IMG/VR virus record: IMGVR_UViG_3300045116_000451
Coordinates: 1-64,000 of that record
Direction: 5' to 3' (one strand)
Source of the DNA: a virus
DNA length: 64,000 nt
Position 1 is the first letter of the stretch. Every line of letters starts with the position of its first letter. The notes under the pieces were generated by a model. It was not told the DNA's origin. It was given only the letters and a program-made list of their open reading frames with translations, and ran no database searches. The position numbers and the translations under genes were made by a program. Below are positions 16,697 through 32,851 of this stretch, one piece after another.

Positions 16697-17077
16697 TTGT
16701 CCATCGTGCGCCTTTCGTGGGACAATCCGATCGTGTGGACCAGCTACAACGGCGGCACGCCTCGAGACGACGCCCCCTGGGCCGAAGAGCTGCTCTGGGC
16801 GAAGCTTCGCTCCCGGCAGATCGAAGGCGTCCGGTTCCGTCGCAACTACGAGCTGGCCGGCTTCAAGATCGACTTCTACGCCCCGGGCATCAAGCTCGCG
16901 ATCGAGACCGACGGCTCGCAGCACGACTTCTCGCGCGCCAAGGACGCGCGGCGTGACGAGAAGCTCGTGCACGAGGGCGTGACGGTCATGCGCTTCGACA
17001 ACGCCGAGATCGAGGGCGATCTCGCGCGCGTGGTGCGCGAGATTCGCGCAAAGGTCGGCGAGCTTCTTCGGCGTTGA
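16697..17077 (+). CDS. DUF559/Vsr-like PD-(D/E)XK endonuclease
   Basis: AEELLWAKLR..RFRR..IDFY..LAIETDGSQH..RDEKL. Confidence 0.85.
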   Translation: MSIVRLSWDNPIVWTSYNGGTPRDDAPWAEELLWAKLRSRQIEGVRFRRNYELAGFKIDFYAPGIKLAIETDGSQHDFSRAKDARRDEKLVHEGVTVMRFDNAEIEGDLARVVREIRAKVGELLRR

Positions 17078-17184
17078 CCGCGTCGACGCGCTGTTGTAGC
17101 TTCGGGCTTCCAGGACGCCCGCTCCGTGGCCCCCCTCCCCTGCATGTCGGAGCGGGCGTTCGCTTGCCCGTCATCCGACTTGTG

Positions 17185-18336
17185 CTACTGACCGATCTCG
17201 GCCGCCCGCTGCGTGCGATCGTGAAGGACCAGACCCGCCACGGTACCCAGCACGAGCACGCTCCCGCCAACCAAAAACCACCGCCGCCGTCTTTCATCGC
17301 GCTCGAGCGACTCGCGCGATTCGACCATCGCCTTCGCCATCGCACCGACCGCCGAGGCGATCCGCGCTTGCTGCGCCAGTGTTTGGCGGGACGAAACAAC
17401 TGCCTTCGCCATCGCACCAGCTGCCGAGGCGATCCGCGCTTGCTCCGCCGTCTTCGCCCGGGCAGCGGCTTCTAGCGTCGCCTTGGCCTTCGCCTGCAGA
17501 GCCGCTTGGGCCGCCGCCGCCTGCCGCGCCTGCTCGCGATTGCGAGCGACACGAGCCGCCGCGATGGCGCCGAGAAGGTCCCCGAGCGAGGCCTCGAACG
17601 CGGCCGCGAGCGCCGGAGCCCAGACGTTTCTGAGCGCCGTCGAGCCTCCCAGGACCACGGCCTGCTGCAGGTCCGCGCTTGGGCAAGCCGGCATGGGCGA
17701 GCCGTGCGTCAGCATGATGATCCACGCGTAGTCGCCCGTGATCGCCGGGCGCGATGCCAGCCACTGGTTGTCGTACGGACCGAACACGAAGCTATCGCCC
17801 ATCCAACGAGCGTCGGCCGACAGCTTCGATGCGATCGAAACGCGCGCGTCGAATTGAACGTCTACGCCGGATTGCGAACGCACGGTGTCTAGACTTTTGA
17901 TATATGCGTTGTACTGATCCGTTAGGACTTGCGCACTCCCGTCCACGAGGCACTGGTAGCACATCACGCCACAAGCCTGCGGCAAAAACGCCATGAGCGG
18001 AGCGGCGATAATCGACGAAATAACCTTGGTCGTTTCCTTGACGACCGGCCAGACGGCTTTGGAAACAACAGCCGCGATCTCATCGCACAAGAACGCGCTC
18101 GTGCCCGGCGGGATGCCGGCGCTCGCGGCGCCCGCCTGGCAACCGTACGTGAGCCCCCTTTTGACCGCGTGCTGGCCGCAGGTTTCCTCGCTCGCCTCCT
18201 GTCCGACGCACGCCTTCGCGGCCGCCCAGCCCTCCGATGCGAACTTGGCCCCTGGCTTCGCTTCGCCGGGCACCTCGAGCCCGAGCCCGGGCAGCACCGG
18301 CCCGAGCCCGAAGCGGGAGCGGCCATCCACGCGCAT
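17185..18336 (-). CDS. Putative virion membrane protein (RFGLG near N-terminus, C-terminal TM)
   Basis: GLG motif, Ala-rich coiled coil, WFLVGGSVLVLGTVAGLVL TM. Confidence 0.65.
   Translation of the reverse strand: MRVDGRSRFGLGPVLPGLGLEVPGEAKPGAKFASEGWAAAKACVGQEASEETCGQHAVKRGLTYGCQAGAASAGIPPGTSAFLCDEIAAVVSKAVWPVVKETTKVISSIIAAPLMAFLPQACGVMCYQCLVDGSAQVLTDQYNAYIKSLDTVRSQSGVDVQFDARVSIASKLSADARWMGDSFVFGPYDNQWLASRPAITGDYAWIIMLTHGSPMPACPSADLQQAVVLGGSTALRNVWAPALAAAFEASLGDLLGAIAAARVARNREQARQAAAAQAALQAKAKATLEAAARAKTAEQARIASAAGAMAKAVVSSRQTLAQQARIASAVGAMAKAMVESRESLERDERRRRWFLVGGSVLVLGTVAGLVLHDRTQRAAEIGQ
17330..17444. repeat. 43-bp direct repeat, 72-bp period (QARIASAxGAMAKA x2)
   Basis: 17330-17372 and 17402-17444 are near-identical. 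Confidence 0.8.
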
Positions 18337-18338
18337 GG

Positions 18339-18674
18339 CTAGCCCGCGACCGGCGGCCGTCCGCCCGGGGGCGCCGAGGGGGGCCTGGCCGTTGTGGTCG
18401 TTGTGCCTGCCCGGAGCTGCTTCATCAAGGCCCCGGCGCCGACCGTGAGCCCGGCGGACACCCCGGCCCCGAGCGCTGCCCCGGCGAGGCGCTTCGAGGG
18501 CCAGAGCAGCGCGCCCGCGACGGCGCCGACGATCGCAGCCCCAACGGGCGGGCCGTACGTGCGCAGGGCGACCGTGGTAGCGCTCGGCTCCGTCCAGGTG
18601 TCCCCGCCTGGCGGCGGCGCCTTCAAACGAACGTCTCCGAGCCCGGCGAAACGGCTGAAGCGCAACATGCGCAC
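18339..18674 (-). CDS. Small 2-TM protein with FAGLG motif
   Basis: Two Gly/Ala-rich hydrophobic helices. Confidence 0.65.
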   Translation of the reverse strand: MRMLRFSRFAGLGDVRLKAPPPGGDTWTEPSATTVALRTYGPPVGAAIVGAVAGALLWPSKRLAGAALGAGVSAGLTVGAGALMKQLRAGTTTTTARPPSAPPGGRPPVAG

Positions 18675-18717
18675 AGTCTAACCGCTGGTGCGTGGAAACA
18701 GAAGGTGCCCGCTTGTG

Positions 18718-19467
18718 TCAGACCGCGACGAACCTGTGGATCTGGTGGAAGGCGTACTCGGCCGGGCAGAACTTGCCGATGTCGTGCAGCCATCGGTTCA
18801 CCTCTTCGTCGTTGTCGGTGAGATGGCGGAGGCGGTTGCCGATGACCTTCTCGTAGGCCCAGAAGGGCAGGAGCAGAGCGCCCGCGCTCTGCGCGAGCAC
18901 GAAACCGTGTCGCTTCACGAGGTCGATCAACTCGCGGAACCCGAATTCGCGCACGTGGTACTGGCACATGAGCGGGACTTCGACGCCGAGCTTTCGGCCC
19001 ATGCGCACGTGCAGCGAATCCCGGTTGGGAGTCGAGACCACGAACACGCCGCCCAGCTTGATGCACTCCCGGATCGCGTCCAGGCCCGCGTCGACATCGC
19101 CCCAGTGCTCGATCGTTTCTCGCGCGAGCACGAGGTCGAATGTGTCGCTGTACGACCGAAAGGTTTCGATCGGCCCGTGATGGATGGTCGCGTTTGGCAT
19201 GGCTTTGCAGGCCTCTTCGTACGCGCTTCGCACGGGCTCGACGCCGACGACACGGCATCGCAACTCGGCCATCAGCTCGCCCTTTCCGCAGCCAACGTCG
19301 AGGGCGTCAAGGTAATTCGTTTGGATCTCGGGGCACGCGAGGTCGTGAAATGCTCGGACCAGAGCTTCGTGCATTTGGCGGTCGAACGGGAGCGCCAGCG
19401 TTCCAACTCCCGGCGTGGACCAGAGCGCCTCGGCGAGACGGGTTGCGGTGTCGTGCGGTTGGCTCAT
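18718..19467 (-). CDS. Class I SAM-dependent methyltransferase
   Basis: ALDVGCGKG, FDLVLARETIEH, GGVFVVSTPN. Confidence 0.9.
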   Translation of the reverse strand: MSQPHDTATRLAEALWSTPGVGTLALPFDRQMHEALVRAFHDLACPEIQTNYLDALDVGCGKGELMAELRCRVVGVEPVRSAYEEACKAMPNATIHHGPIETFRSYSDTFDLVLARETIEHWGDVDAGLDAIRECIKLGGVFVVSTPNRDSLHVRMGRKLGVEVPLMCQYHVREFGFRELIDLVKRHGFVLAQSAGALLLPFWAYEKVIGNRLRHLTDNDEEVNRWLHDIGKFCPAEYAFHQIHRFVAV

Positions 19468-19510
19468 GCTCGGCAGGGTAGCCGAGCGATCGGATCGGCA
19501 CAAGCCGTGG

Positions 19511-19834
19511 TCACGGCTGGCGAGGTTCTCTTCGTGCTTCGTCGATGATCGCCGCCAGCTCGGCTTCCAAGCCGTCGGGTACGCCTTGCGATACGTACTT
19601 GGCAGCGAGCGTTTGTGCGAGGTGCATGTGGCCGGCCTTTGCAGCTGCGCGAACCGCACCGCAGCGTGCAGCCGCGCCCTCGAGGTCGTGTGCGGGCAAC
19701 GCCGAAGCGATTTCGCTTTCCAGCTTGCATACCTTCAAGAACGCCAGTTGACGTTCAGCGGCGGTTTTGTGACCTCCGCCGTCCGCTAGAAGGATCGCGT
19801 GCGTGACTCGGTGGTACAGGTCTTGGAGCGTCAT
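19511..19834 (-). CDS. Hypothetical helical protein
   Basis: MTLQDLY start; EGAAARCGAVRAAAKAG helical repeat-like segment. Confidence 0.6.
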   Translation of the reverse strand: MTLQDLYHRVTHAILLADGGGHKTAAERQLAFLKVCKLESEIASALPAHDLEGAAARCGAVRAAAKAGHMHLAQTLAAKYVSQGVPDGLEAELAAIIDEARREPRQP

Positions 19835-20255
19835 GCGCCAGAGCGTAATACACGACGGGAAACGTGCTTGAACGATCGCGCGGAAGATCGACGCGCGCGA
19901 AATCGACAAGCGTAGCTCGGCGAGACACGCGAGCGCAAGCGGAATGAAGGCGATCGTAACTGCGCGACAGTGCGCGGGATCCCGCTCGGGCGCGCACGGA
20001 TACCGCCACGTTGTAATCCGGGCACGTGCAGATAAGCACCCCTTATTGCCACGTTAGCCGTACGGCCCGCGGGGCCCGGGGTGGGGTGCGGCATCGGGAA
20101 AAATCGGCCCGCGCGCGTCAAAAACATATGGCGCGCGCGCGTACTACGTGGTATGGTCTGTCCTGGACCACGGAGGTCCAGCAACCCCCCCCCCGGCAGG
20201 GCCGGGCGACGACGGGCGCCGCGCCCCCCCCCATCGCGCGGCAGGAGCGGACGAT

Positions 20256-20486
20256 ATGGTGACCCTGTGCACGGCCCCTAGGCCCCCCGATGACGTGCTG
20301 GTAGACCTACTGGACCCCGCGTACCCCCCGGGGGTACAGTGTTACGGCTGGACGGCCGTAGATGACGCGGAGTTGGAGGTCGCGGACGCCGTGTCGATCG
20401 GCCCGCGGGCAACGGCGGCGGCACGGGCCGTGCTAGACGCAGCCCGCGCGCGTGTCGCGTGCGCGGTGCATCCGTGTAGCCCGTAG
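20256..20486 (+). CDS. Hypothetical protein (76 aa), first gene of the early-like block
   Basis: AGGAG RBS; ATG 20256. Confidence 0.5.
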   Translation: MVTLCTAPRPPDDVLVDLLDPAYPPGVQCYGWTAVDDAELEVADAVSIGPRATAAARAVLDAARARVACAVHPCSP

Positions 20487-20515
20487 CACACCCCTGGCGA
20501 CGCGCCGCAGGGGCC

Positions 20516-21079
20516 ATGCACCGCCTAGACCCCCTCCGCGAGCTACTCCGCGCCGCCGGCGCGGCGGTCGAGGTCCGCGCGGGCCTGGCCGGACTCGCGG
20601 CGGACGGCGCGGTGCTGGCGCCTGCCACGTGGACCGCGCGCGTAGCACGTCCTGGCCTAGCTGTCGTGGCTGGTCGGGTCACGCTGGACGCGCACGCGAT
20701 CCCGCGCGCCGAGCTGCGCTCGGGCGAGCGCGCCTACCGCGCGACCTGGATCGAGGTCGTGGGCGGGGCCGTCCGGGTCGTGCGCGGAGTGATCGCGTCG
20801 CGCCTCACGGACCGGTCGCGCGTGGACTGGTCGCACGCGTCCGGGCTGGCCGAGTGGCGACGCACGGCCGGGGCCCGCGCGAGGCGCCCTAGCTGCCCCG
20901 CTGTCGCGTCGAGCACCTCGGACGGGTCGGACCATGGGCGCCCCGCCGAGCGCGATAGCGCGTGCTATACACAGTTTGCGGTGGGGCCTCGCGGCGGATC
21001 CGATGCCGCGACGTTCCACCACGCATCGATTGCGACCCCGGGCACAGCGCCCGGGGATTCGGGTTGCGCGCGCTGGTAG
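20516..21079 (+). CDS. Hypothetical protein, paralogue of the C-terminus of 21552-22364
   Basis: VTLDA..YRATWI..VRVVRGVI..WSHAS matches VTLAA..YDASWI..VRVQHGVI..WIHAS. Confidence 0.55.
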   Translation: MHRLDPLRELLRAAGAAVEVRAGLAGLAADGAVLAPATWTARVARPGLAVVAGRVTLDAHAIPRAELRSGERAYRATWIEVVGGAVRVVRGVIASRLTDRSRVDWSHASGLAEWRRTAGARARRPSCPAVASSTSDGSDHGRPAERDSACYTQFAVGPRGGSDAATFHHASIATPGTAPGDSGCARW

Positions 21080-21158
21080 CACGTGCTATCATGCGTAGCG
21101 CGTGGCGCGCGGTGCGCCTACGCGCTACGGTCGCCCGGACCGGATACCGGGCAGGGAG
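21064..21158 (+). promoter_or_regulatory. Repeated promoter/operator/leader, copy A
   Basis: TTGCGC-17-TATCAT with palindrome TAGCACGTGCTA (21077-21088); leader near-identical to copy C. Confidence 0.75.
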
Positions 21159-21163
21159 AAAAA

Positions 21164-21406
21164 ATGACACGCGAACAGGCGATCGATCGACTCGTAAACC
21201 AGGTGGCCCGGTGGGGCGAGGGCGAGCGCGATACATCGCGCCCCGCTGACTGGGATTCCCGGCCGAATCGGCGCGCCGAGCTGTGCGCCTGCCCGGACTG
21301 CGGCGAGTCGCACGTGGACAACTGCGACGACTGCGGCTGTTGTGGTTTCTGCGGCGACTGCCACTGCGGCGGCACGACGCGCTGGGATGCCGTCGCCGTC
21401 GAGTAG
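21164..21406 (+). CDS. Small Cys-rich metal-binding protein
   Basis: CACPDC..CDDCGCCGFCGDCHC; GGGAG RBS. Confidence 0.65.
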   Translation: MTREQAIDRLVNQVARWGEGERDTSRPADWDSRPNRRAELCACPDCGESHVDNCDDCGCCGFCGDCHCGGTTRWDAVAVE

Positions 21407-21427
21407 TGCGCCTAGCGCCCCCGCCCG

Positions 21428-21517
21428 CCCCGGGGCGTCCTGCCCCCCCCCCTCCCAAAAACCGCTTGCGCGCGCTGGTAGCGCGTGCTATATGATGATA
21501 GCCCGCACGGAGCGGGC
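21428..21517 (+). promoter_or_regulatory. Repeated promoter/operator, copy B
   Basis: C-run/CAAAAA upstream, TTGCGC(21466)-17-TATATG, TAGCGCGTGCTA; hairpin GCCCGC-ACGGA-GCGGGC. Confidence 0.75.
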
Positions 21518-21551
21518 CAACGACCGGGCAGGGCCCGGGGAGGATAGAGCG

Positions 21552-22364
21552 ATGAGTCACCCACCTATCAGACTGAGCGTCACTGAACGAGGCCGACTGC
21601 ATCTGACCGGCCGCGCGGCGGGCTACCCCGCCGCGGACTACGCGTGCGTGTCGTCGCACGCGGATGATCTGGTCACGCGCTGGAGGCGCGCGTGTCAGGT
21701 CGCGGCGCGAGCATGCGACCTGCCGACGTCCGTGCGCGCGGCCGCGCTCGCCGCGCACGAGGTGCACGCGAGGCGCGAGATACAGCGGGCCACATCGATG
21801 GACCTGCTCGGCCGAAGATGCCCGGGACTCGCGGTCGCGCGCGCTACGCGCGTCCTCGCGCAGCGGTCGCGCGAGCACGAGGGACGCGTCGTGCACGCGG
21901 TGCGCGCAGCCTGGCACGTGTCCCCGTACCGTCGAGCGGCCGGGACCTGGGCAGGTGGCCATCACGGCCTGGAGGTCACCTGTTCCGAGTATGTTCAGGC
22001 TCGGACTGCAACCTGGAAAGTTTGGTCGAAAAACGGAAAATGGTCCGGGCTAGACGCTCGGACTGTCCTCGCGGTCGATCCGCGCAGGTACCCCCTCGAC
22101 CGCGCGGAGCTGCACGTGGTCGAGCGCCTGGTCACGCTCGCTGCGTCTCCGATCGCGTGCGCGACGGACGAGCAGGTCTACGACGCCTCGTGGATCAGGC
22201 AGGCGCGCGGGCTCGACGTGCGAGTGCAGCACGGTGTGATCTACCGTCGCCGATCCCGAGCGGGCGGCGCGTGGCTACCGTGGATCCACGCGTCCACGCT
22301 CGCCGCCGCTCGATCGGTCACGTCCCGTCTAGTGCGCGAGGCGCGCGCGCAGGTGTCGCCGTGA
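21552..22364 (+). CDS. Hypothetical protein (270 aa)
   Basis: GGAGG RBS, ATG 21552; GTGA coupling to next gene. Confidence 0.65.
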   Translation: MSHPPIRLSVTERGRLHLTGRAAGYPAADYACVSSHADDLVTRWRRACQVAARACDLPTSVRAAALAAHEVHARREIQRATSMDLLGRRCPGLAVARATRVLAQRSREHEGRVVHAVRAAWHVSPYRRAAGTWAGGHHGLEVTCSEYVQARTATWKVWSKNGKWSGLDARTVLAVDPRRYPLDRAELHVVERLVTLAASPIACATDEQVYDASWIRQARGLDVRVQHGVIYRRRSRAGGAWLPWIHASTLAAARSVTSRLVREARAQVSP

Positions 22365-23146
22365 GCTACCGCCGCGCCCCCCTCGCTGCGTGGCTGGCCC
22401 CGGAATACCCGCGCGCGTCGCTGGAGCAGGCGCGCCAGCTGCGATCGGGCCTCGCGCCGGCCGCCATCGCGCGCCGCGCCGACCCCGCCTCGACGCTCAC
22501 GGCCGCGGAGGCGCACGCGTGGCTGAGCGAGTCGCCCGACGTCGCGCCCCTCGCGTGGGCCACGCGTCACCTGCTCCGCGGCCAGCACGTCGTGCGGTCG
22601 TGGACCGTGCTCGGGTGGCTGCGCCGCGTGCTCGCCACGCCCGCGGAGCGCGCGGCGCTCCAGCGCGATCGGACCGTGCGCGGGCCCGGCGGGCAGACCG
22701 CGCGCGTGCGGCTCGTCGACCGCATCGACGAGATCCAGGACTGCGACCTAGCGCGCGGCGCCCGCACGGGCGTCGTGGCCGCCTTCGAGGCCGCCGCGGA
22801 GCGGTGGGGGTCGGCGTACCTCGCGCGCCTCGCGACCGACCATCGCGTGCTCCGCGACCCGCCCCCGTGGCGCCTCGGAGCACGCGTGCGCGTGCTCATC
22901 ACCGCCGCGGACCTAGTCCGTGAGGGGGCGGATATGCACCACTGCGTCGGCGGGTACGCTCACGCCGTCTCGACCGGGCAGAGCGTGATCCTCTCGATCC
23001 GGTGCCGCGCGCATCGGAGCACGGTTGAGGTGTCCCGAGACGGGTGTATCCGACAGCACAAGGGGGCAGGGAATGTTCCCCCGGACTCGGTGTGTGTGGC
23101 TATTCTGGAGAGTCTGAAACGAAGGAATGGGTGGCAACATGGGTAA
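22361..23146 (+). CDS. PcfJ-domain protein
   Basis: DLVREGADMHHCVGGY..ILSIR..TVEV..IRQHKG.GN. Confidence 0.8.
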   Translation: MSYRRAPLAAWLAPEYPRASLEQARQLRSGLAPAAIARRADPASTLTAAEAHAWLSESPDVAPLAWATRHLLRGQHVVRSWTVLGWLRRVLATPAERAALQRDRTVRGPGGQTARVRLVDRIDEIQDCDLARGARTGVVAAFEAAAERWGSAYLARLATDHRVLRDPPPWRLGARVRVLITAADLVREGADMHHCVGGYAHAVSTGQSVILSIRCRAHRSTVEVSRDGCIRQHKGAGNVPPDSVCVAILESLKRRNGWQHG

Positions 23147-23369
23147 CGCACGAAAAGTGAAGCTCGGCCGCGCCAGGCTCATCCTGCGCGACCATGCCGC
23201 GTGGGCCGGCGTCTCGGTTCCGCGCTCGGTGATGCGCCGCGAGACGGCGGCGCTCCTGCCGCTCGCCCGGCCGCGCGGGCTCGTGGCCGTGCTCCGCCTC
23301 GCCTGGCGGTGCGCCGTCGCCGCGTGGCGATGCTCGCGCGCCGCTGCCCGCCGTCTCCCCGTCTCCTAG
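23139..23369 (+). CDS. Hypothetical basic protein
   Basis: Overlaps the PcfJ stop; ends before the next promoter. Confidence 0.45.
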   Translation: MGNARKVKLGRARLILRDHAAWAGVSVPRSVMRRETAALLPLARPRGLVAVLRLAWRCAVAAWRCSRAAARRLPVS

Positions 23370-23379
23370 CCTCCCCCGT

Positions 23380-23510
23380 CCCCGGGGCGGCCTGTCCCCC
23401 CCCTCCCAAAAACCGCTTGCGCGCGCTGGTAGCACGTGCTATATGCACAGTGCGTGGCGCGCGGTGCGCCTACGCGCTACGGTCGCCCGGACCGGATACC
23501 GGGCAGGAGA
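23380..23510 (+). promoter_or_regulatory. Repeated promoter/operator/leader, copy C
   Basis: TTGCGC(23417)-17-TATATG, TAGCACGTGCTA (23430-23441); upstream part matches B, downstream part matches A. Confidence 0.75.
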
Positions 23511-23517
23511 CACCATC

Positions 23518-23949
23518 ATGGCTACTATCCTCACCCATCTGGCGGACCCCCGGAGCGCGACACCGGGTCCGTGCGCTATTTGCGGTTCCGACGCGACGTC
23601 CTGGCGCCGCACCGGCCTGGCCGCGGGCGGGCTCGTGCGCGCGGCGCGCGCTTGCGAGGCGCACGAGCACGACGTGGTCAGCGCGTTGGCCGCGCTCACC
23701 ATGGACGATTGCGTCTCGTTCGTGCCGCGCGCGAGGCGGCTCGCGCGCGCCGATGCCGCCGAGCGTCGCGCGGAGAGGCTGTGCGCGCGAGCTGGCGGGT
23801 GGCGGCGGATGTCCGCGTCGCTCCGTGGCGCATCGTCGCACACGCACACGTGTGCGCTCGTCGGGGGCGCATGCGCGCGCGAGGCCGCCGCGCTCGATGC
23901 CTATGCCGCCGCGCTCCGGGCGTCGATCGGGACGGGGGGTGAGTCATGA
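23518..23949 (+). CDS. Hypothetical protein, possible Zn finger
   Basis: CAIC..CEAH; AGGAG RBS. Confidence 0.55.
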   Translation: MATILTHLADPRSATPGPCAICGSDATSWRRTGLAAGGLVRAARACEAHEHDVVSALAALTMDDCVSFVPRARRLARADAAERRAERLCARAGGWRRMSASLRGASSHTHTCALVGGACAREAAALDAYAAALRASIGTGGES

Positions 23950-25433
23950 CCAGCACCTACACGCTCGCGGGCATCCGCGCTGTGCCGGTGACGATTGGCG
24001 TTACCATGACCGAGCGATCCGGGGTCTCGATCATGGGCATGACCGACGTCGACGCGCGCGAGACGCGCGTGCGCGTGCGCGCTTCCCTGGCGCGCCTCGG
24101 TGTGGACGTGGCCAGCCTCTCGGTCACAGTCATCGCCGATCCGCCCGTCACGTCGGACGCGGCGGCGCTCGATCTGCCGATCGCGTGCGCCGTGCTGGAG
24201 GCGCTCGGCGCCGTGCCGCCCGAGGCGCTGCGCGGCACCGTCATGCTCGGCGGGCTGTCGCTCACCGGCGCGGTGCGACCGATCCGGGGGCTCCTGCCTC
24301 GGCTCATCGGGGCGCGCGAGGCCGGGATGCGGCGGGCCATCGTGCCGGCGGGCAACGCGCGCGAGGCGGGCGCGGTCTCGGGGATCGAAGTGTTCGTCGC
24401 CGAGCACCTGGAGCAGGTGCGCGATCACGTGCGCGGCAAGGCTCTGCTTTCGACCGCGGCGGCGCGGGCCTACGAGGCGAGCGACGAGGCGGCGTTCGAC
24501 CTGGGCGACGTCAAGGGCCAGCACGCCGCGCGGCGAGCGCTCGAAATCGCCGCCGCGGGCGGCCATCACCTTCTCATGCTCGGCCCGCCGGGCGGCAAGA
24601 CGATGCTCGCCCGGCGAATGCCGTCCATTCTGCCGCCCCTCACCTTCGACGAGGCGATCGAGGCGAGCGTGGTTCACTCGGTCGATGGCATCTTGCCTGC
24701 CGACTCGGGCATCGTGCGGTCGCGTCCCTTCCGCGCCCCCCACTACACCGTGAGCGAAGCCGGGCTCGTGGGCGGCGGCGATCCGCCCCGGGCCGGCGAG
24801 GTCTCGCTCGCGCACCACGGCGTGCTGTTCCTCGACGATCTGGCGGAGTTCCGTCGGAGCACGCTCGAACAGTTGCGCGCTCCGCTCCACGACGGGTCCG
24901 TGACCGTCGGCCCGAACCGCGCCCGTGCGACGTTCCCGGCCCGCCCGATGCTCGTGGCGGCCATGAACCCCTGCCCGTGCGGCTACGCGGGAGAGGGGAG
25001 CGGGCGGTGCCGGTGTACCGTCGACGCGGTCACCCGATACCGCGACCGCGCGCTCGGTGCGCTCGGCGATCTGATCGACGCCCGAGTGCGGATCGAGCCG
25101 ACGAGCCCGAGCGCTCTAGCGGCCGCACCCCCGGGCGAGCCGTCGAGCGCTGTGCGAGAGCGCGTGGTGGCCGCGCGCGCGCGGCAGGCAGCCCGGCAGG
25201 ACGGGCAGCTCAACGGGCGCCTCGACCAGGCCGATTTCGAGCGCGTTGCGCCGCTCGACGAGCCCTCGACGCGCATGCTCGCTATCGCGGCGGAGGCCCG
25301 CGCGCTCGACGCCAGCGCCATTGTGCGCGTCCGTCGTGTCGCGCGCACGATCGCGGACCTAGACGGTGTCGAGCACGTGCGCGCCGAGCACGTGGCCGAG
25401 TCGCTCGCCCTCGCGGCCCCGGTTCTCCTGTAG
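23946..25433 (+). CDS. comM: ComM/YifB-family AAA+ protein with degenerate catalytic motifs
   Basis: DVKGQ..RRALEIAAAGGH, RPFRAPH, GEVSLAHHGVLFLD, AAMNPCPCG, RVARTIADL. Confidence 0.9.
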   Translation: MTSTYTLAGIRAVPVTIGVTMTERSGVSIMGMTDVDARETRVRVRASLARLGVDVASLSVTVIADPPVTSDAAALDLPIACAVLEALGAVPPEALRGTVMLGGLSLTGAVRPIRGLLPRLIGAREAGMRRAIVPAGNAREAGAVSGIEVFVAEHLEQVRDHVRGKALLSTAAARAYEASDEAAFDLGDVKGQHAARRALEIAAAGGHHLLMLGPPGGKTMLARRMPSILPPLTFDEAIEASVVHSVDGILPADSGIVRSRPFRAPHYTVSEAGLVGGGDPPRAGEVSLAHHGVLFLDDLAEFRRSTLEQLRAPLHDGSVTVGPNRARATFPARPMLVAAMNPCPCGYAGEGSGRCRCTVDAVTRYRDRALGALGDLIDARVRIEPTSPSALAAAPPGEPSSAVRERVVAARARQAARQDGQLNGRLDQADFERVAPLDEPSTRMLAIAAEARALDASAIVRVRRVARTIADLDGVEHVRAEHVAESLALAAPVLL

Positions 25434-25450
25434 CCCCCCCCAAAATTCGC

Positions 25451-25480
25451 TTGCGTTGTGTGCTAGCACGTGCTAGCACA
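25451..25480 (+). promoter_or_regulatory. Promoter/operator copy D with 22-bp perfect palindrome
   Basis: C-run CAAAATTCGC, TTGCGT; TGTGCTAGCACGTGCTAGCACA (25459-25480). Confidence 0.7.
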
Positions 25481-27096
25481 TGTCAGACGCGCACCCGCTC
25501 GCGCGTTTTCGATCGCGCATGCGTAGCTCCTGCCCCCGTCCTAGGTCCGACCGCGCCACGTGGCAACACGTGCTGGCGGTCGAATACGACCTGCCGGCCC
25601 ACGCGGGCGCGGCGAGAATCTGGGCGCGCGTGACGCGGCCGCCGCGCCCGATTCTCACGCCGGGCGCGTACGTCGCCGCCTGCCGGCGCCTTGCGGGCGA
25701 CCGCGTCTACACAGACGTTGTCCTCGACGGCGATCCGCCGTGGCGCCCGCTCGTCGGCTACTCACGCGTTGACGGGCGCCTCGTCGCGGCCGGGTTCGGG
25801 CTCTGCCCGCCACGCCGGTGGGTCGAGTCCGAGCTGGACCGGTTCCTGCGGTTCTGGCGCCGCACGGCGGGCCGGCCCGGGCTGGTTGGTTCCTCGTACA
25901 ATCCGCATTCGCCCGAGGTCACCTACCAGGCGTTGCGCGCCGGCGTGCCCGCGTGGATCGTGGCCTCAGGCGTCCGGCTCACAGGCCGTGACGGGCGCGT
26001 GCACCGAGTGACGCGCTCTAGGCGCCGGCGCCTGCAGGCCATGGCGAGGGCCATGCGCCGCCGCAGTTTCCACCGCTACGGCGTGACGTGGGGCCACGAC
26101 GCGCTACGGGCGATCGGGCGTCTGTCGCCCGAACTACAGGCCGTGGCGGTTTTGTCGGTGCGTCGCGAGCAGGCCGCCCGCAAATTCGCCGCGTGGACCG
26201 TCCGCGCGCGGGACCTGGACTGGCCACGGATAGCCGCGGTCCAGGCCGAGATCCTGGCGAACCCCACTGGCCCCCTCCGGGCCGCGTGGTCTGCCGTCGC
26301 CGACGCAAAAACGCCGCTGGGCGTCCGCGCAACGGCGATGCTCCCCGCGTGGTGCCGGGCCGAGGACGGGACCGTTAAGACGCGCCAGGCGATCGAATGG
26401 TTTGCGCCGGGCTCGCGCTGCGTCTCGCTCGCGCGCGCGGTGCGTCTCGCGCGCGGCGAAACGCCCGCCGAGATCGCAGGCGGGCTGCTCAGCGAGGCGG
26501 ACGCCGCGCGCTGGATCGCCTCGGAGCTGGATCCGGCGGAATGGCTCGCGGCCGAGATCGCGTCGGGCCTGCCGTCGGTCCGGGATCGCGAGCGAGTTCT
26601 GGACGAGCGTGGCCCGCGGCTCCTAGCGTGGCTGCGGGCAGTCGACCTGGCCGGCGGGTTGCCGGCGCTGTCGGCCGAACGCGTCCTGTCGAACCCGCAG
26701 GGCGAGCGGTTCCGGGTGCGGTACCTGGAGCAGCTCAGCACGTTCGAGCAGGCGCTGTACGTAGATTCGACGGAGCGCAACCCGGACGTGCTATTTGCCC
26801 GCGCGTTTGACTGGGGTTCGTGGCAGGCGCGCAACCTGCGTCCAGTCGAATCGCCCGCGCAGGAGGTGATGGAGCTGCGGGCGCGCGTGCAAATAGCGCG
26901 CGAGGCAGTAGCACAGCTGCTCGACGATTTGCGCGCCGGTCGCGCGCGCAGTCGAGACCTCGACGCCGCGCGCAGGGCGCTCGACGCGCTCGACAATGCC
27001 GCGCCGGGTGACGTGGTGCTCGTGCGCGTCACGCCCCCGGCTCGCCCCGGCTCCGAACCCCCCCGCAGAAAAATCGTCCTGCGGGAGACAGATTGA
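25480..27096 (+). CDS. Hypothetical protein sharing a domain with the PcfJ protein N-terminus (start uncertain)
   Basis: WFAPGSRCVSLARAVRLARGETPAEIA matches WLAPEYPRASLEQARQLRSGLAPAAIA. Confidence 0.6.
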   Translation: MSDAHPLARFRSRMRSSCPRPRSDRATWQHVLAVEYDLPAHAGAARIWARVTRPPRPILTPGAYVAACRRLAGDRVYTDVVLDGDPPWRPLVGYSRVDGRLVAAGFGLCPPRRWVESELDRFLRFWRRTAGRPGLVGSSYNPHSPEVTYQALRAGVPAWIVASGVRLTGRDGRVHRVTRSRRRRLQAMARAMRRRSFHRYGVTWGHDALRAIGRLSPELQAVAVLSVRREQAARKFAAWTVRARDLDWPRIAAVQAEILANPTGPLRAAWSAVADAKTPLGVRATAMLPAWCRAEDGTVKTRQAIEWFAPGSRCVSLARAVRLARGETPAEIAGGLLSEADAARWIASELDPAEWLAAEIASGLPSVRDRERVLDERGPRLLAWLRAVDLAGGLPALSAERVLSNPQGERFRVRYLEQLSTFEQALYVDSTERNPDVLFARAFDWGSWQARNLRPVESPAQEVMELRARVQIAREAVAQLLDDLRAGRARSRDLDAARRALDALDNAAPGDVVLVRVTPPARPGSEPPRRKIVLRETD

Positions 27097-27098
27097 AC

Positions 27099-27150
27099 TT
27101 GCGCCGCGTATACGCGGTGCTATCGTAGGCCATGCCCGCACGGCGCGGGC
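27099..27150 (+). promoter_or_regulatory. Promoter with a different palindrome and the shared leader hairpin
   Basis: TTGCGC-16-TATCGT; CCGCGTATACGCGG (27104-27117); GCCCGC-ACGGC-GCGGGC. Confidence 0.6.
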
Positions 27151-27171
27151 GCTGAACACCAGGAGGTGACC

Positions 27172-28743
27172 ATGTCCGAGAAACAGACCACCCGCCCCGC
27201 CATGGCGTCGGCGCTCATCCGCGCGAGGATTCGCGCGGTGCCGCTCGTGGCCGTGCGCACGGCGGACCAACCCGCCGCTGTGCGGGTGCTCACGGCGGCG
27301 CTGCTCGAAAGCGCCGTCGAGCGCGACGAGCCCCCGCCCGGGATCGTCGTGCATGACCCGGTGCGAGGGTTCGCGCCGGGCACCACCGCCGGAGCGGCCG
27401 GCCAGGCCGCGCAGGAGGCGATTGCGGCCATGCTCGGGGACCTCGACCCGAGCATGAGCGCCGACCCCGTTACCGCGCTCACAATGGCGGCCGCCGCGCC
27501 GCCGGACACCGTCGTGATCATGATGGCCGGTGACCGCGCGCTCGGCGAGCCGCGCCCGGCGCTGGCGGCCCTCCTGCTCCGGGACCGCTACGCCGCCGGG
27601 CGGTCCACGCTCGTTGTGCTCGGCGCGTCCTGGAGCCCCGCGGCCGAGCTTGGCTCGGACGTGTACGTGCTGGACGACGAGCCGCCAGAGACGCCCGAGC
27701 GGCGCTCGACGGTCGAGCGCCTCGTGGCCGATGCGAAACTCAGAGCGGACACGGCAACGATCGAGTCCGCATGCGGGTTCACTCGGGGGCTGAGCCGGTT
27801 CGCGGTCGAGCAGACCGTGAGCCTCGCCCTCAACGGAAAGGGGCTGCGCTTGGACGTGCTCGCGCGCGTCTGGCGCGAGGCGATCGACCGCACGCCCGGG
27901 CTCCGAGTGGAGTCCACGGGCTCCGGGGACGCCGAGTCCGTCGCCGGGCTCGCCGCGCTCCAGGCGCACGCCGCCCGCGTCACGAGCGGCCGCGCCCGCC
28001 CCGATGTTGTCGTGTGGATCGATGAGATCGAGAAGGCGCTGGCCGGCTCGTCCGGCGCCGTCGCCGACAGTTCCGGCGCCTCGCAAGCCGTGCTCGGATC
28101 CATCCTGACTGCGATGGAGCAGTCCGGGGCCGAGGGCATGATCCTCGTCGGCCCGCCCGGGACCGGGAAAAGCCTGTCCGCGCGCGTGATGGGCGCGGCC
28201 GCGGGCGTGCCCGTGATCCAGCTCGACCCCGGGCGAATCAAAGGGTCGCTCGTCGGGCAGACCGAGGCGCAAGCGGCGGCCGCCATGGCCGCGCTACGGG
28301 CCATGGGCGGCCGCTGCTACTGGGTCGCAACGAGCAACGGCCTGGCGACCGTGCCGCCCGAGCTGCTCCGCCGGTTCACGGACGGCGTGTGGTTCGTGGA
28401 CCTGCCCGCGCCCGACGAACGCGCCGCGTTGTGGCGCTTGTACCTGGACCGGTGGGATCTCCAGGACGAGATGCCCGCGTCGAGCGCCGACGTCGGCTAC
28501 AGCGGCGCCGACGTGCGCAACGTGTGCCGCACGGCGTGGCGGGACGGCGTCTCCGTCGCCGCCGTGATGGCGAGTTACGTGCCCGCCTCGAACGCGGCGC
28601 GCGATCGGATCGAGGCCCTGCGGCGCGGTGCCGTGGGCGCCTATCGATCGGCGTCCTACACGGGCGCCTACAGGATGCCGGTGGCGGAGCCGGCGAGTCA
28701 GCCGGCGACGGGCCGGAAACTGCAGCTAGGACGGGAGGGCTGA
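27172..28743 (+). CDS. Ycf46-like AAA ATPase with Walker B placed before Walker A
   Basis: VVWIDEIEKAL precedes GPPGTGKS; VATSN, PPELLRRF and FVDLP follow. Confidence 0.85.
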   Translation: MSEKQTTRPAMASALIRARIRAVPLVAVRTADQPAAVRVLTAALLESAVERDEPPPGIVVHDPVRGFAPGTTAGAAGQAAQEAIAAMLGDLDPSMSADPVTALTMAAAAPPDTVVIMMAGDRALGEPRPALAALLLRDRYAAGRSTLVVLGASWSPAAELGSDVYVLDDEPPETPERRSTVERLVADAKLRADTATIESACGFTRGLSRFAVEQTVSLALNGKGLRLDVLARVWREAIDRTPGLRVESTGSGDAESVAGLAALQAHAARVTSGRARPDVVVWIDEIEKALAGSSGAVADSSGASQAVLGSILTAMEQSGAEGMILVGPPGTGKSLSARVMGAAAGVPVIQLDPGRIKGSLVGQTEAQAAAAMAALRAMGGRCYWVATSNGLATVPPELLRRFTDGVWFVDLPAPDERAALWRLYLDRWDLQDEMPASSADVGYSGADVRNVCRTAWRDGVSVAAVMASYVPASNAARDRIEALRRGAVGAYRSASYTGAYRMPVAEPASQPATGRKLQLGREG

Positions 28744-28746
28744 GAC

Positions 28747-29094
28747 ATGCCGTGCAGCACTCGCTACGAAACCACGTCCATGGACGTGGCGAACATGAAC
28801 AGAACGCGCCTCGCGTCCGCGCTCGCGGACGCGGGGTGGAGCGTGAGCCACGACACCCACGCGGGGACGCTCACCGCGTGGTCCAAGGGCGGCGCGCGCC
28901 TGATGATCGACTCGCAGGGGGCACGGGTCGAAACGTCGGCCTACACCGACACCCCCGCCGCCGTCCAGACCGCGATTGCGCGCGCGTACGCGCTGCGCAC
29001 CGTGGCCGAGGTGGCCAAGCGCTTCGGGTTGCGGCAGACCGCCGCGCCCCAGACAACGAACAACGGCGCGACCCGCGTGCGCCTCACGAGGTGA
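28747..29094 (+). CDS. DUF1257-like small protein
   Basis: Size and position after Ycf46-like AAA; LASALADAGW..RAYALRTV..AKRFG. Confidence 0.5.
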   Translation: MPCSTRYETTSMDVANMNRTRLASALADAGWSVSHDTHAGTLTAWSKGGARLMIDSQGARVETSAYTDTPAAVQTAIARAYALRTVAEVAKRFGLRQTAAPQTTNNGATRVRLTR

Positions 29095-29096
29095 CT

Positions 29097-29363
29097 ATGT
29101 GCCAGTCCGTGAAGGGGCCCCTGGCCCCGAATACCCTCGACGTCGTGATTCTGCCAGACGGCAGGATCCGAATCGAAACCGGCTCGTTCGCCGGTGCCTC
29201 GCACACCAGCGCAAACGCGTTTCTCGCCGCGCTGGTGAAAGAGCTGGGCGTGTCGATCGAGCGGCGCGAGCCGCTCGCGCACACCCACGCTCACGAGCAC
29301 GCTCACGAGCACGAGCACCAACACGCGGGCACGGGCTCGCACGGAGGGCACGACCATGGCTGA
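29097..29363 (+). CDS. DUF2997-like small protein with His-rich tail
   Basis: VVILPDGRIRIETGSFAG; HTHAHEHAHEHEHQH. Confidence 0.55.
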   Translation: MCQSVKGPLAPNTLDVVILPDGRIRIETGSFAGASHTSANAFLAALVKELGVSIERREPLAHTHAHEHAHEHEHQHAGTGSHGGHDHG

Positions 29364-30924
29364 CACCGGAACGCTCGGACTGCCCGTTTCGTCGCAGCCC
29401 CCGACCGAGCCCGAGGCGCGCGCCGCGGGAGCGCTCGCCGCGAACGGAGCCCGATTCGACTCGGCCGAACGCCTGGAAATCTCGCGCGTGGTCCTGGCCG
29501 CGTTCGACGCGCCCGCGGCAACGCGCGGGGCCATCGTGGGCGCGCTCGACGTCGCGGCCGACGCGGCCACCTCGATCCGAGTCGGCGGGGTCTACTCGTC
29601 GGCGGCCGCGTTCGTGCGTGACCTGCCGCGCACCACGCGCCCGGTCGCGCGGGCTCTGCTCGTCGCCTGGACCGAGGGGGCGACGGTGCAGGCGCCCGCG
29701 CCCGCGCCCGAGCCCGAGGACGACGGGTTCGAGCCGGAGCCGGCACCGGAGCCGGTGACCGACGCGCCGCCCTCGGTCGAGGCTCCTGCTCCCGCCGCTA
29801 CGGTGCCGGAGCCCGTCGCGGCTGCGCCCGCGCCCGAGCCCGTGGTTGCCCCGCCCCCTCCCCCGCCCCCGGCTCCCGAACCGGTGATGGAGGCCGCTCC
29901 GGCCCCCACGCCGGTGCCCCCGGAACCCGTTGTGGAGCCCGAGCCCGTTCCGCTCCCGGCTCCCGAGCCCGAGCCGGACCTGTCGGATCTGCCGGCCGAC
30001 GCTCTGCGGGCCGTCGAGCAGGTCGAGGATCCGCTGGCGAAATGCCGGTGGCTCGTGCTGTCGTTCGACCGGCTCGGCCGATCGCGACAGGTGCGCGGCT
30101 ACGACGTGGACGTCACGGCGAACGGCGAGGACGTGGACGCGAGGCAGCTCGCCATGTCCAAAAAAATCCTTGACGTTAAACAGTCTAGGGCAATCGGATC
30201 GGCGGACTGCGGCCTGCGCGCGCAGCTGCGCGACGAGTACGCGTTGACCGCGGTGGGGGGCATGTACGCGATTCCCGTGCGCCTCATGTCCGCCGTCCAC
30301 GATCGCCTGACCGAGCATCGCGAACGACGCGGGAGGCTAGTTGCCGCGTTCCGCGAGGCCTACGCGGCGTCCATAGAGGCCGACCGCACGCGGCTCGGCG
30401 CGCTGTTCCGCGAGGCGGACTACCCCGCCGTTGAGGACGCGTGCAATGCGTTCGCCATGGCGTGGACGTGGCGGAGGCTCGACGGCGCGAGCGATGAGGA
30501 CCTCACCGACGCCATGGCCGCCGAGCAGCGGGAGCAGCTCGCGGCCGACTACGCCCGCCAGCGAGCCGAGGTCGTGGCCGGGCTACGGGCCATGTTTGCG
30601 AAGCTCGCGGAGGAACTGCGCGAGCGGCTCACGGCCGAGCGCGAGGCAGGCAAGGGGGCCATTTTCCGCGACGAGCGGGTCGAGAAACTGCGGCGTTTCG
30701 TCGGGCTGTTCGCGGAGCGCGACGTGGGCGATCCAGCCCTCGCGGACGAGGTCGCGCGCGTTGGGCGAGCGCTCGACGGCGTGGACGCGGACGACCTGCG
30801 CCGGGACGACTCGCTCCGGCGGACCACGGCCGAGACGCTCGCGAGCGTGACGGCCGCGGTAGCCACGTTCGAGACGGGAGCGGCGCCCCGGCGCAGGATG
30901 CGCCTTCGCCCCGAGGACGAGTGA
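29356..30924 (+). CDS. Two-domain protein with P/E/A linker; C-terminus DUF3150-like
   Basis: Long PEP linker; SKKIL..GMYAIP..LFREADYP..IFRD helical domain. Confidence 0.6.
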   Translation: MADTGTLGLPVSSQPPTEPEARAAGALAANGARFDSAERLEISRVVLAAFDAPAATRGAIVGALDVAADAATSIRVGGVYSSAAAFVRDLPRTTRPVARALLVAWTEGATVQAPAPAPEPEDDGFEPEPAPEPVTDAPPSVEAPAPAATVPEPVAAAPAPEPVVAPPPPPPPAPEPVMEAAPAPTPVPPEPVVEPEPVPLPAPEPEPDLSDLPADALRAVEQVEDPLAKCRWLVLSFDRLGRSRQVRGYDVDVTANGEDVDARQLAMSKKILDVKQSRAIGSADCGLRAQLRDEYALTAVGGMYAIPVRLMSAVHDRLTEHRERRGRLVAAFREAYAASIEADRTRLGALFREADYPAVEDACNAFAMAWTWRRLDGASDEDLTDAMAAEQREQLAADYARQRAEVVAGLRAMFAKLAEELRERLTAEREAGKGAIFRDERVEKLRRFVGLFAERDVGDPALADEVARVGRALDGVDADDLRRDDSLRRTTAETLASVTAAVATFETGAAPRRRMRLRPEDE

Positions 30925-31009
30925 GGGGCTCTGCCCGGGTCGGTGTGACAGCCGGCCCGGGCGCTGGGGCGCATGGTGCGTCCTCGTTACGTACTGCGGA
31001 GGTAGGAGC

Positions 31010-31246
31010 ATGAATTTCGCGAATATTGAGCATTGGCTGGGGCACTTCTGTCCGCATCCGGGCGGCGAGTGCGATCTACTGGTCGAGCGCGACCACACGT
31101 CCGCCGCAGTTCCGTGGACGGTGAGCGTGCGATCGGACATGGGGCGCACGTTCGGAGTGGGGGCCTCGCTAGCCGAGGCGCTCGCGAACCTGGACGCGCA
31201 GCTCGGGACGAGGTTCCCGATCGGAAAGCGGGAGACCGAGCGATGA
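31010..31246 (+). CDS. Hypothetical protein (tandem paralogue 1)
   Basis: AGGAG RBS; GASLAEALANLDAQLG. Confidence 0.6.
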   Translation: MNFANIEHWLGHFCPHPGGECDLLVERDHTSAAVPWTVSVRSDMGRTFGVGASLAEALANLDAQLGTRFPIGKRETER

Positions 31247-31521
31247 GGTACACGTGGATTGACAAGTACCTGGCCACGTTCGGGTGCGAGGTGCGCGTCG
31301 AACGCACGTCCGTCCATCGCGCTGTGCGGTGGTGGTCGAGCGTGCCTGCCAACGGAGAGGCTACATTCGGAGCCGACGGATTCGAGGTTGAGGAAAAGTC
31401 CGTAGTCTGGAAGATAAGCGTGCCCAGCGGTCACGAGCGGGTGACATACTCGGGCGAAACGCTCGCCAATGCGCTCGCGGACCTGAACGCGTATCTGGGC
31501 TGCAAATTGGCTACGATTTAG
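31243..31521 (+). CDS. Hypothetical protein (tandem paralogue 2)
   Basis: ATGA coupling; GETLANALADLNAYLG. Confidence 0.6.
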   Translation: MRYTWIDKYLATFGCEVRVERTSVHRAVRWWSSVPANGEATFGADGFEVEEKSVVWKISVPSGHERVTYSGETLANALADLNAYLGCKLATI

Positions 31522-31528
31522 GGTGTGA

Positions 31529-31548
31529 CCCCGGCCACGTGGCCGGGG
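31529..31548. repeat. 20-bp perfect palindrome with CACGTG core
   Basis: CCCCGGCCACGTGGCCGGGG, intergenic. Confidence 0.75.
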
Positions 31549-31588
31549 AATCGGGCGCCCGGCCCCGGAAGCCGGGCAGGAGGACAAC

Positions 31589-31978
31589 ATGGCAATCAAT
31601 ACGCACAACGGAGACGGTAACGTGGAGGCGTTCGGGATCTACGCCCCGCATTGGGTGTGGGTCGCGCTCGGGGCAACGCCCGACTGGTGCGGCGGGAGGT
31701 TCCGGTGGGACGAGCGGGCATTCGCGGCCGCTGGCGCGGCGATCGAAATCGCCCGCGCCGAGCTGAAGAACGGGGCGACCGACGCGGCTATCCTCACGCG
31801 CGCCATGCGCATCCGACGCCGGGAGGCCAGCATCGATCGCGCCGTGGACGCGGTGCAGTCCCTCGGCGACGCGCTTCGTCGGGGCGTCCCCGTGCGCGTG
31901 AGCGGCGAGGTGACCCACGAGCTTGCGCATGCGATCGGACATGTGTTGACCACGACGTGCGAGGAGGTGGAATCATGA
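31589..31978 (+). CDS. Hypothetical protein
   Basis: AGGAGG RBS. Confidence 0.6.
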   Translation: MAINTHNGDGNVEAFGIYAPHWVWVALGATPDWCGGRFRWDERAFAAAGAAIEIARAELKNGATDAAILTRAMRIRRREASIDRAVDAVQSLGDALRRGVPVRVSGEVTHELAHAIGHVLTTTCEEVES

Positions 31979-32418: not shown

Positions 32419-32428
32419 GAGGCTGACC

Positions 32429-32665: not shown

Positions 32666-32851
32666 GTTCGCCCTGCCCCCGCCGGGGGCATGGCCGCGAG
32701 GCCGTGGGCGCGCTGGCGACGCGCCGCAGGGACCGCGCGTGAATACGCGCTGTAGTCCTGCCCGGACGCCCGCGGCTGACATGATGTCGGCCGCGGGAGC
32801 CTGGGACGGACTCAGGAGCAAGCCGGGCGCGGCCCGGCACGGAGAACGAAA

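Follow-up and report, generated by a model that had tools for sequence, protein, structure and literature searches.

Why does a block of viral genes run for hundreds of nucleotides without a single AA or TT, while the proteins encoded there are conspicuously poor in lysine, asparagine and phenylalanine? The question is raised by the early genes of an uncultured virus represented by the IMG/VR record IMGVR_UViG_3300045116_000451 (G000; 95.6 kb, CheckV completeness 66%), the first 64 kb of which form the window analyzed here. A PcfJ-like protein of the block has an identical copy on a 120-kb contig; the full virus measures roughly 120 kb, and the related genome G004 is complete at 119.9 kb and joins end to end through an overlap of 127 nt. 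All 17 sequencing runs holding the stretch are lake-water metagenomes, and no RNA run is listed among them. The block begins with a sharp edge in composition in a divergent non-coding region (19660-20255) and heads a run of plus-strand genes that extends from about 20.2 to 42.2 kb; minus-strand genes upstream, including one for a class I methyltransferase (18718-19659), diverge from the same region. As set out below, the block very probably shows real avoidance of a motif at the nucleotide level. Taken as a whole, the pattern is best explained by selection against a short target motif, most likely the protospacer-adjacent motif (PAM) of a CRISPR system, an answer that is offered tentatively and falls somewhat short of an even chance.

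AA/TT depletion at the head of the early block

The original prediction, made from the sequence alone, had described an extreme lack of AA and TT at the start of the block, and its counts proved exact: there is none in 20413-20974, none in 22041-22403 and two in 22381-22980, and the AA/TT-rich comparison region 6001-6600 contains 35. Runs free of AA/TT measure 564, 365, 380, 241, 229 and 276 nt within 20.2-25.2 kb, and 12 of the 16 such runs of at least 150 nt in the whole record fall in 20.18-25.2 kb, with the other four in the remaining 90 kb. In 500-nt windows corrected for base composition the observed/expected ratio (O/E) of AA/TT drops to 0.15 (20501-21000) and 0.08 (22501-23000), compared with about 1.1 elsewhere. 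For the core stretch (20184-23100), which holds the runs of 564, 365 and 380 nt, the strand-symmetric value rho(AA/TT) is 0.50 against 1.11, and rho(TA) is 1.10 against 0.48. The earlier remark that CTA/TAG is common here also holds, CTAG occurring five-fold more often in the core (3.4 versus 0.7 per kb) and the CTA codon rising in the early genes; this enrichment of TA and CTAG derives in part from four copies of a palindrome, TAGC[AG]CGTGCTA, and from scattered half-sites. What remains of AA/TT is clustered, as had been predicted, in repeated upstream cassettes that are putative promoters and in one patch (21983-22039), and furthermore in ribosome-binding sites and the 3' ends of genes.

The consequences for the proteins are considerable. 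Lysine, asparagine and phenylalanine stand at 0.17, 0.29 and 0.16 times their levels in the rest of the genome, in agreement with the predicted shortage, isoleucine and tyrosine at about 0.6, and alanine, arginine, histidine, cysteine and tryptophan are raised. On a first reading, based on synonymous permutation within genes, the depletion appeared to reside at the amino-acid level only, and this reading was overturned when codons were tested by class. Synonymous codons giving rise to AA or TT (GAA, CAA, CTT, TTG, TTA, GTT and ATT, taken as a share of their families) make up 5.2% in the early genes (20.2-23.9 kb) versus 19.4% elsewhere (odds ratio 0.23, p 4e-11), whereas other codons ending in A or T are unchanged (17.9% versus 19.7%, p 0.24). 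Between 23.9 and 31 kb both classes are halved, as in a generic shift of guanine-plus-cytosine content (GC) at third codon positions (GC3).

An AAG/CTT purge over 17 kb

The depletion of AA/TT lies at the head of a longer domain (20184-37000) that is poor in AAG/CTT. When all 32 strand-symmetric trinucleotides are normalized for base composition, AAG/CTT is the most depleted in 20.2-31 kb, at 0.23 of its value in the rest of the genome; CAA/TTG (0.60) and GAA/TTC (0.61) come next, AAC/GTT is at 0.98, and AAA, AAT and TAA exceed 1. In a 2-kb profile the stretch of 20-32 kb has rho(AAG/CTT) values of 0.15-0.51; rho then climbs to 0.65 at 32-34 kb and 0.86 at 34-36 kb, reaches 1.0 and is normal from about 37 kb, with values of 0.65-2.2 across the rest of the genome; the left edge of the domain is sharp and its right side fades. 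The avoidance does not depend on flanking bases, every NAAG and AAGN word lying at 0.28-0.68 and AAC controls at 0.87-1.2, nor is it inherited from shorter words, given that the Markov O/E conditioned on sub-words is 0.42-0.44 versus 1.29 in the rest (AAC: 0.93-1.25). Intergenic DNA of the domain contains 8.1 AAG plus CTT per kb versus 27.4.

After synonymous reshuffling with amino acids and codon usage held fixed (the method of Robins and Kupczok, PMC4246573), boundary AAG/CTT is at 0.49 (z -2.2) in 20.2-23.9 kb, 0.38 (z -5.5) in 23.9-31 kb and 0.57 (z -4.6) in 31-37 kb, as against 1.49 and 1.09 outside the block, and shuffling of whole codons gives the same outcome. Five control words lie at 0.86-1.39 with the exception of CAA/TTG in the early genes (0.67), and boundary AAC/GTT is even raised in the block (1.2-1.39). 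Codon choice points the same way: CTT accounts for 0 of 88, 6 of 205 and 6 of 172 leucine codons compared with 12% elsewhere, valine GTT is unchanged, and the predicted preference of lysine for AAA is confirmed by 19 of 32 codons in 20.2-31 kb versus 18% elsewhere (p 4e-5 and 0.003; AAA fractions 0.71 and 0.56 versus 0.19). No such purge is seen in GC-matched control genes, which have boundary O/E values of 1.03-1.10, a rho of 0.78-0.96 and AAA in 4-12% of lysine codons.

The word is depleted along with its complement, whatever the codon phase and outside genes as well, which points to some factor that reads double-stranded DNA. Of the original prediction, the idea that selection acts on the DNA itself and has reshaped the proteins is supported by the four-fold cut in AA/TT-making codons, by the avoidance of AAG/CTT across codon boundaries and by the normal lysine and phenylalanine of PcfJ-like homologues in more distant viruses.

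Occurrence in related viruses

A search of IMG/VR with the single sequence returned no relative; relatives were found by an alignment search of the same database, and PcfJ-like homologues exist at 50-61% identity. L026/G004 carries an orthologous block with the 270-aa protein, the PcfJ-like protein, small genes and an AcrIII-1-like gene. With a background GC of 57%, this block is the GC maximum of its genome and the minimum for both AA/TT and AAG/CTT, AAG/CTT is again the top-depleted word (0.31-0.37), and lysine (1.3% versus 7.4%) and phenylalanine (0.8% versus 2.2%) are reduced with isoleucine and tyrosine unchanged. The blocks of L034 and L035 resemble that of L026. In every virus with the block, lysine is the most depleted residue (0.07-0.41 of background) and arginine rises. 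Pooling the window virus with four relatives gives a value of 0.68 (z -3.65) for junctional AA/TT in block genes versus 1.04 in background genes, with AT/TA at 0.95. The AAA preference of lysine and the enrichment of TA and CTAG occur in the window virus only and are not conserved in these relatives.

On the other hand, composition is normal around the PcfJ-like genes of G005, G006 and G007 (37-50% identity), with no depletion. A comparison of homologues, as the original prediction had suggested, gave 5.8% lysine, asparagine and phenylalanine together in the PcfJ-like protein P0006 versus 1.9% here, and the distant viruses keep normal lysine and phenylalanine. The depletion is consequently not a property of the PcfJ family, since distant viruses with PcfJ-like genes have normal composition; it is a labile, lineage-specific state.

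G004 has a second locus of high GC with low AA/TT and AAG/CTT, at about 65.9-66.9 kb in contig coordinates (53-54 kb when reversed), far from its PcfJ block. The protein P0007, encoded on a 1174-nt contig, is a 344-aa PcfJ-like homologue (36% identity) with no lysine, one asparagine and no phenylalanine, which is more extreme than the protein described here.

Base composition and alternative explanations

All genes of the GC plateau (20000-31000) are on the plus strand, and the plateau has 73-74% GC where the genome has 65-67%. A good part of the AA/TT effect is what such DNA would show anyway. The gene for a ComM/YifB-like ATPase of the Mg-chelatase family (23946-25433) has lysine at 0.6, asparagine at 0.8 and 2.4 AA/TT per 100 nt; its cellular counterparts of equal GC show 0.4, 0.8 and 2.9, and their phenylalanine content agrees as well. 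The early genes contain about 1.8 AA/TT per 100 nt and 1.7% lysine, asparagine and phenylalanine versus 2.0-3.3 and 3.4-5%, respectively, in genes of 72-76% GC from an Acidobacteriota genome (400 kb) and a plasmid of Kineococcus (150 kb), and this plasmid itself holds one AA/TT-free run of 532 nt. Mean AA/TT density is thus only modestly low in comparison with GC-matched natural DNA, and about half of the AA/TT effect is ordinary; what is out of the ordinary is the clustering, together with the departure from the signature of the virus itself and the purge of AAG/CTT. Once GC is allowed for, much of the depletion in 23.9-31 kb is explained, and there the original prediction stands only in part, whereas that of the early genes and the purge of AAG/CTT are not accounted for. 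Likewise, the signature of a GC-rich island, that is a uniform shift of composition and codons with sharp edges, holds at 23.9-31 kb and fails at 20.2-23.9 kb.

One alternative is a by-product of composition, in which a GC-rich module of alanine- and arginine-rich orphans, perhaps horizontally acquired or host-like, would lack AA/TT as well as lysine, asparagine and phenylalanine merely as a result of its 73-79% GC. The sharp edges of the plateau, the agreement of the ComM-like gene with its homologues, the equal fall of both codon classes in 23.9-31 kb, the absence of that part from L026 and the narrow distance to the control genes, with the long free run in the Kineococcus plasmid, all speak for it. 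It fails, however, on the class-specific synonymous bias of the early genes, on boundary avoidance of AAG/CTT beside a rise of AAC/GTT and on the choice of AAA over AAG; moreover, L026 keeps isoleucine and tyrosine but loses lysine and phenylalanine, and high-GC windows elsewhere in the virus have AA/TT O/E values of 1.0-1.7. Unlikely as an account of the whole, it is refuted in that role and stands as a partial cause. In T7 and T5, restriction sites are avoided in the DNA that is injected first (in T5 the first-step-transfer DNA). The original prediction had proposed something similar, namely a first-entering genome end at 19.9-20.2 kb cleared of sites for restriction or bacteriophage exclusion (BREX) systems or of unmodifiable bases, to which we now assign a small probability. 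Leading-region avoidance is documented for Type I restriction-modification in Murciavirus (PMC12455610), where likewise only a motif's position within the early region counts and the region is variable and carries anti-defence genes; furthermore, the present depletion starts sharply at about 20.1 kb and fades along transcription. In contrast to that case, there is no evidence of first entry here, the avoided core is a flank-independent word of 3 nt, and palindromes of 4-6 bp (CGCG, GCGC, CTAG and ACGCGT) are enriched; as restriction and BREX sites are longer than 3 nt, their removal is not supported. A contig of run X1 bridges 16732-21129, the depth of the listed X1 pieces is flat (12.6-14.8), no terminal repeat is seen, and G004 assembles end to end, its closure involving only the 127-nt overlap; a genome end at this position is accordingly unsupported rather than excluded, since contigs cannot show true ends.

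Selection could alternatively act on RNA, with early messages avoiding CUU, AAG and UU/AA because these are read by a ribonuclease or RNA-binding factor of host or virus. On the coding strand boundary CTT is at 0.26 (z -7.8) versus 0.78 for AAG, the domain coincides with plus-strand units and terminator-like T-runs are lacking, as such selection would predict. AAG is nevertheless depleted as well (rho over all phases 0.72 versus 1.53), lysine is shifted to AAA, the loss of a word jointly with its complement is what a factor reading double-stranded DNA would leave behind, and in L026 the strands are equal (0.40 versus 0.46). We know of no ribonuclease with specificity for CUU or AAG, and selection on RNA appears improbable. 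Avoidance of lysine in the proteins, for example as an escape from a host system that modifies or tags lysine, would make the DNA pattern a side effect and agrees with lysine being the most depleted residue in all block viruses and with the rise of arginine; it is contradicted by the out-of-frame avoidance of AAG/CTT, the loss of leucine CTT, the choice of AAA and the loss of phenylalanine, and is very improbable. Scarcely any weight is left for protection from sunlight, by which TT, the main site of ultraviolet dimers, would have been removed from genes transcribed off an unrepaired genome. The lake-water origin of all runs and the sparing of AT/TA would suit it, but the other dipyrimidine steps (TC, CT and CC) show no decrease, the coding strand is as poor in AA as in TT, without template-strand bias, and avoidance in 23.9-37 kb is restricted to AAG/CTT, with GTT, ATT and AAC at normal or raised levels. 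Two other candidates were dropped. Silencers of the H-NS/Lsr2 type prefer TpA-rich tracts, and avoidance of xenogeneic silencers is not compatible with the retention or enrichment of TA and AT steps; the avoidance of out-of-frame words argues in turn against an explanation by tRNAs or an anticodon nuclease.

A candidate reader of the avoided word

In the favoured reading, selection acts against a short target motif, and the AA/TT-free runs mark the most extreme part, at the head, of a footprint that this selection has left, in graded form, on the rightward early block. Three layers are evident: the GC plateau at 20-31 kb; the first 3.8 kb under the palindrome-bearing cassettes, in which lysine, asparagine and phenylalanine are replaced and GAA, CAA, CTT and TTG avoided; and the stretch from 20.2 to about 37 kb, from which AAG/CTT is purged. 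Each AAG/CTT in the block, and at its head each TT on either strand, would represent a liability, as expected if some DNA-reading factor needs such a word of 2-3 nt beside its target. PAMs of CRISPR-Cas systems are the best candidates for such words. AAG is the motif for acquisition and interference in type I-E and is also used by type IV-A (PMC4246573; 10.1101/2023.06.23.546257). Cas12m has a TTN PAM, silences by binding and confers protection only if its targets are essential genes (PMC10442227; PMC11013384). Early operons close to their promoters would be hit hardest by effectors of the binding type, and equally by any interference that must prevail ahead of the expression of early anti-defence genes, and this is the proposed reason why the purge is regional and fades downstream. 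The stronger depletion of CTT on the coding strand would correspond to pairing of the guide of an I-E-type complex with the coding strand, an orientation that has been reported as effective for Cascade roadblocks (10.1101/2023.06.23.546257). The identification of the avoided motif with a CRISPR PAM is accordingly proposed with reserve and is open to substantial doubt. In its most far-reaching form, which we consider rather unlikely, the immediate-early operons of a lineage of large lake viruses would be PAM-free zones, with TT on either strand (the TTN of Cas12m) purged from the first 3-4 kb and AAG/CTT (the word of types I-E and IV-A) from 17 kb and with lysine, asparagine and phenylalanine nearly all replaced, driven by RNA-guided DNA binders of hosts and of rival viruses of the same lineage.

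The window virus itself carries a Cas12-like gene (81776-83689; TNB domain) with two arrays as well as a gene of the AcrIII-1 family, the orthologue of which in L026 falls inside the depleted block; Cas12m is related to the Cas12-like effector of this virus and of its closest relative. On the basis of these genes a CRISPR arms race is plausible. In G004, two repeat arrays (78058-80408 and 80686-82563; 13 and at least 6 units, with a different repeat) adjoin a 664-aa Cas12-like open reading frame (ORF). This ORF is 28-32% identical to that of the window virus and has no match in G005-G007.

Several points weigh against a CRISPR PAM as the avoided word. None of the spacers compared (about 16 of the window virus and the G004 array units) matched any relative in the set analyzed, the one hit being to the virus itself. 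A regional purge would protect little from a cleaving type I system, which is able to strike genome-wide. GC by itself strongly lowers AA/TT as well as lysine, asparagine and phenylalanine, AA/TT at codon junctions is not significantly low in the early genes of the window virus taken singly (0.91), and the coding-strand asymmetry of CTT and AAG would equally fit a cause at the RNA level. Finally, the boundary signal of AAG/CTT, strong as it is in the window virus, has a moderate size in L026 and does not reach significance in the others, whose samples are small.

The arrays gave some additional information. Two spacer seeds had no match in IMG/VR, the repeat seed matched three IMG/VR loci, all of them without arrays, and a search of the array against G004-G007 gave no match. 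The self-match concerns spacer 5 of the first array (G000 74922-75298), which is identical over 30 nt to 80422-80451 of its own genome; the 5' flank there is TGC, not TTN. One "spacer" of the Cas12-adjacent array is a 272-nt insert (G000 81090-81360, L148) that looks richer in A/T than its surroundings and has, on the minus strand, an apparent ATG start and paired cysteine codons; it may be a small zinc-ribbon-like gene.

Comparison with known cases of motif avoidance

The closest precedent is the depletion of PAMs in phages described by Kupczok and Bollback (2014, PMC4246573), in which a motif of 2-3 nt is under-represented after control for codon usage and sub-words. AAG and GAA/TTC are listed there as PAMs, and AAY is over-represented beside the depletion of AAG, there as here. 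Phages of P. aeruginosa deplete CC, the PAM of type I-F (PMC12174588). However, published PAM depletion consists of genome-wide shifts of a few percent, whereas the depletion described here is confined to about 17 of about 120 kb, follows a gradient, amounts to 2-4-fold at codon boundaries and alters amino acids. Binding-only effectors, that is Cas12m (PMC10442227, PMC11013384) and type IV-A (10.1101/2023.06.23.546257), would provide a reason for PAM-free early operons, and Cas12-like genes with arrays occur in this virus and in G004; on the other hand, none of these viruses yielded a target for an effector of this kind.

The known forms of motif avoidance in phages are limited to a weak depletion across the genome and to leading regions that have lost a few restriction sites. 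Here the erasure of a word of 2-3 nt is regional and graded along early operons, dictates amino-acid content and is present in close relatives and absent from distant ones. If the reader were a CRISPR effector, the outcome of binding-type interference would be decided in the early operons, the purged word would offer a sequence-only clue to the PAM pressure on an uncultured virus and hence to the defences of its host, and the odd composition of some phage early proteins would be explained. If the reader is of another kind, some factor not yet known must recognize AAG/CTT.

Genes of the block

The block opens with a 76-aa ORF on the plus strand (20256-20486), as are all ORFs described in the following, which has a weak coding score and lacks lysine, asparagine and phenylalanine. 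It is followed by a 187-aa orphan (20516-21079) with no lysine, no asparagine and two phenylalanines, in which all AA/TT is confined to the last 105 nt, under the next upstream cassette, and for which Pfam, PHROG and the protein Atlas gave no lead. Next come an 80-aa cysteine-rich ORF (21164-21406) and the gene of a 270-aa protein (21552-22364) that has orthologues at 35-38% identity in L026 and L034; the AA/TT-rich patch within it (57 nt, 21983-22039) accounts for 13 of the 16 AA/TT of the gene and for all its lysine and asparagine. The 261-aa PcfJ-like protein (22361-23146) matches PF14284 over residues 175-239 with 46 bits (E 6e-12), above the Pfam gathering score of 25, and 11 of the 13 AA/TT of its gene lie within the last 122 nt. 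A second 76-aa ORF (23139-23369) and a 143-aa ORF (23518-23949; no lysine, no asparagine, one phenylalanine) precede the ComM-like gene assigned by Pfam. PHROGs and the Atlas assign no function to the orphan early proteins, the Atlas models of which have a predicted local distance difference test (pLDDT) of 0.37-0.39. Searches of phage and plasmid records with DNA and protein gave distant matches to the PcfJ domain only, Rfam gave no match, and no tRNAs were found.

Further downstream (25570-30924) follow genes for a 508-aa protein, an AAA ATPase, two small products and a 522-aa protein, in which GC3 is raised generically and AAG/CTT is purged specifically. The 508-aa protein (25570-27096) has its homologue in the N-terminal part of a protein of 521 aa in relatives (L027 4089-5654) whose C-terminus is PcfJ-like, and because of this match to PcfJ-like fusions the block carries two PcfJ-related family members. 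Summed contig depth jumps several-fold in all four runs at 24673-25339 and 28675-29341, with many loose ends at 24948-24986; this is no copy-number signal, since conserved ATPase motifs attract contigs of other organisms. A gene for a protein resembling STIV_B116 (DUF1874, AcrIII-1 family; 36891-37229) lies at the fading end of the AAG/CTT-poor domain.

Repeated cassettes and palindrome

The palindrome TAGCGCGTGCTA at 20956-20967 is the first of the four copies of TAGC[AG]CGTGCTA (20956, 21077, 21479 and 23430; 20430-20660 is also listed), and one copy occurs elsewhere in the genome. The half-site TAGCAC/GTGCTA is enriched 15-fold, coding sequence included. In the repeated upstream cassettes the palindrome is placed between TTGCGC and a TATCAT-like hexamer. 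The first copy (21064-21095, plus strand) consists of TTGCGC, 17 nt with the palindrome TAGCACGTGCTA and TATCAT, and may represent a promoter with an operator; the others are located at 21466-21497 and, again with the palindrome, at 23417-23448, both on the plus strand. A scan with the sigma-70 consensus returned no promoters and no terminators, the cassettes falling below its threshold, and for this reason they count as no more than putative promoters. Contig breaks of run X1 in 21-23.5 kb coincide with them. Behind the cassette lies a leader of some 60 nt that recurs (21090-21150 and 23450-23510) with 96% identity before two different genes and has no match in Rfam. Runs of 8-10 C stand ahead of the cassettes (20186-20234, 21441-21450 and 23397-23405), and CCCCCC/GGGGGG is enriched 17-fold in 20.2-23.5 kb.

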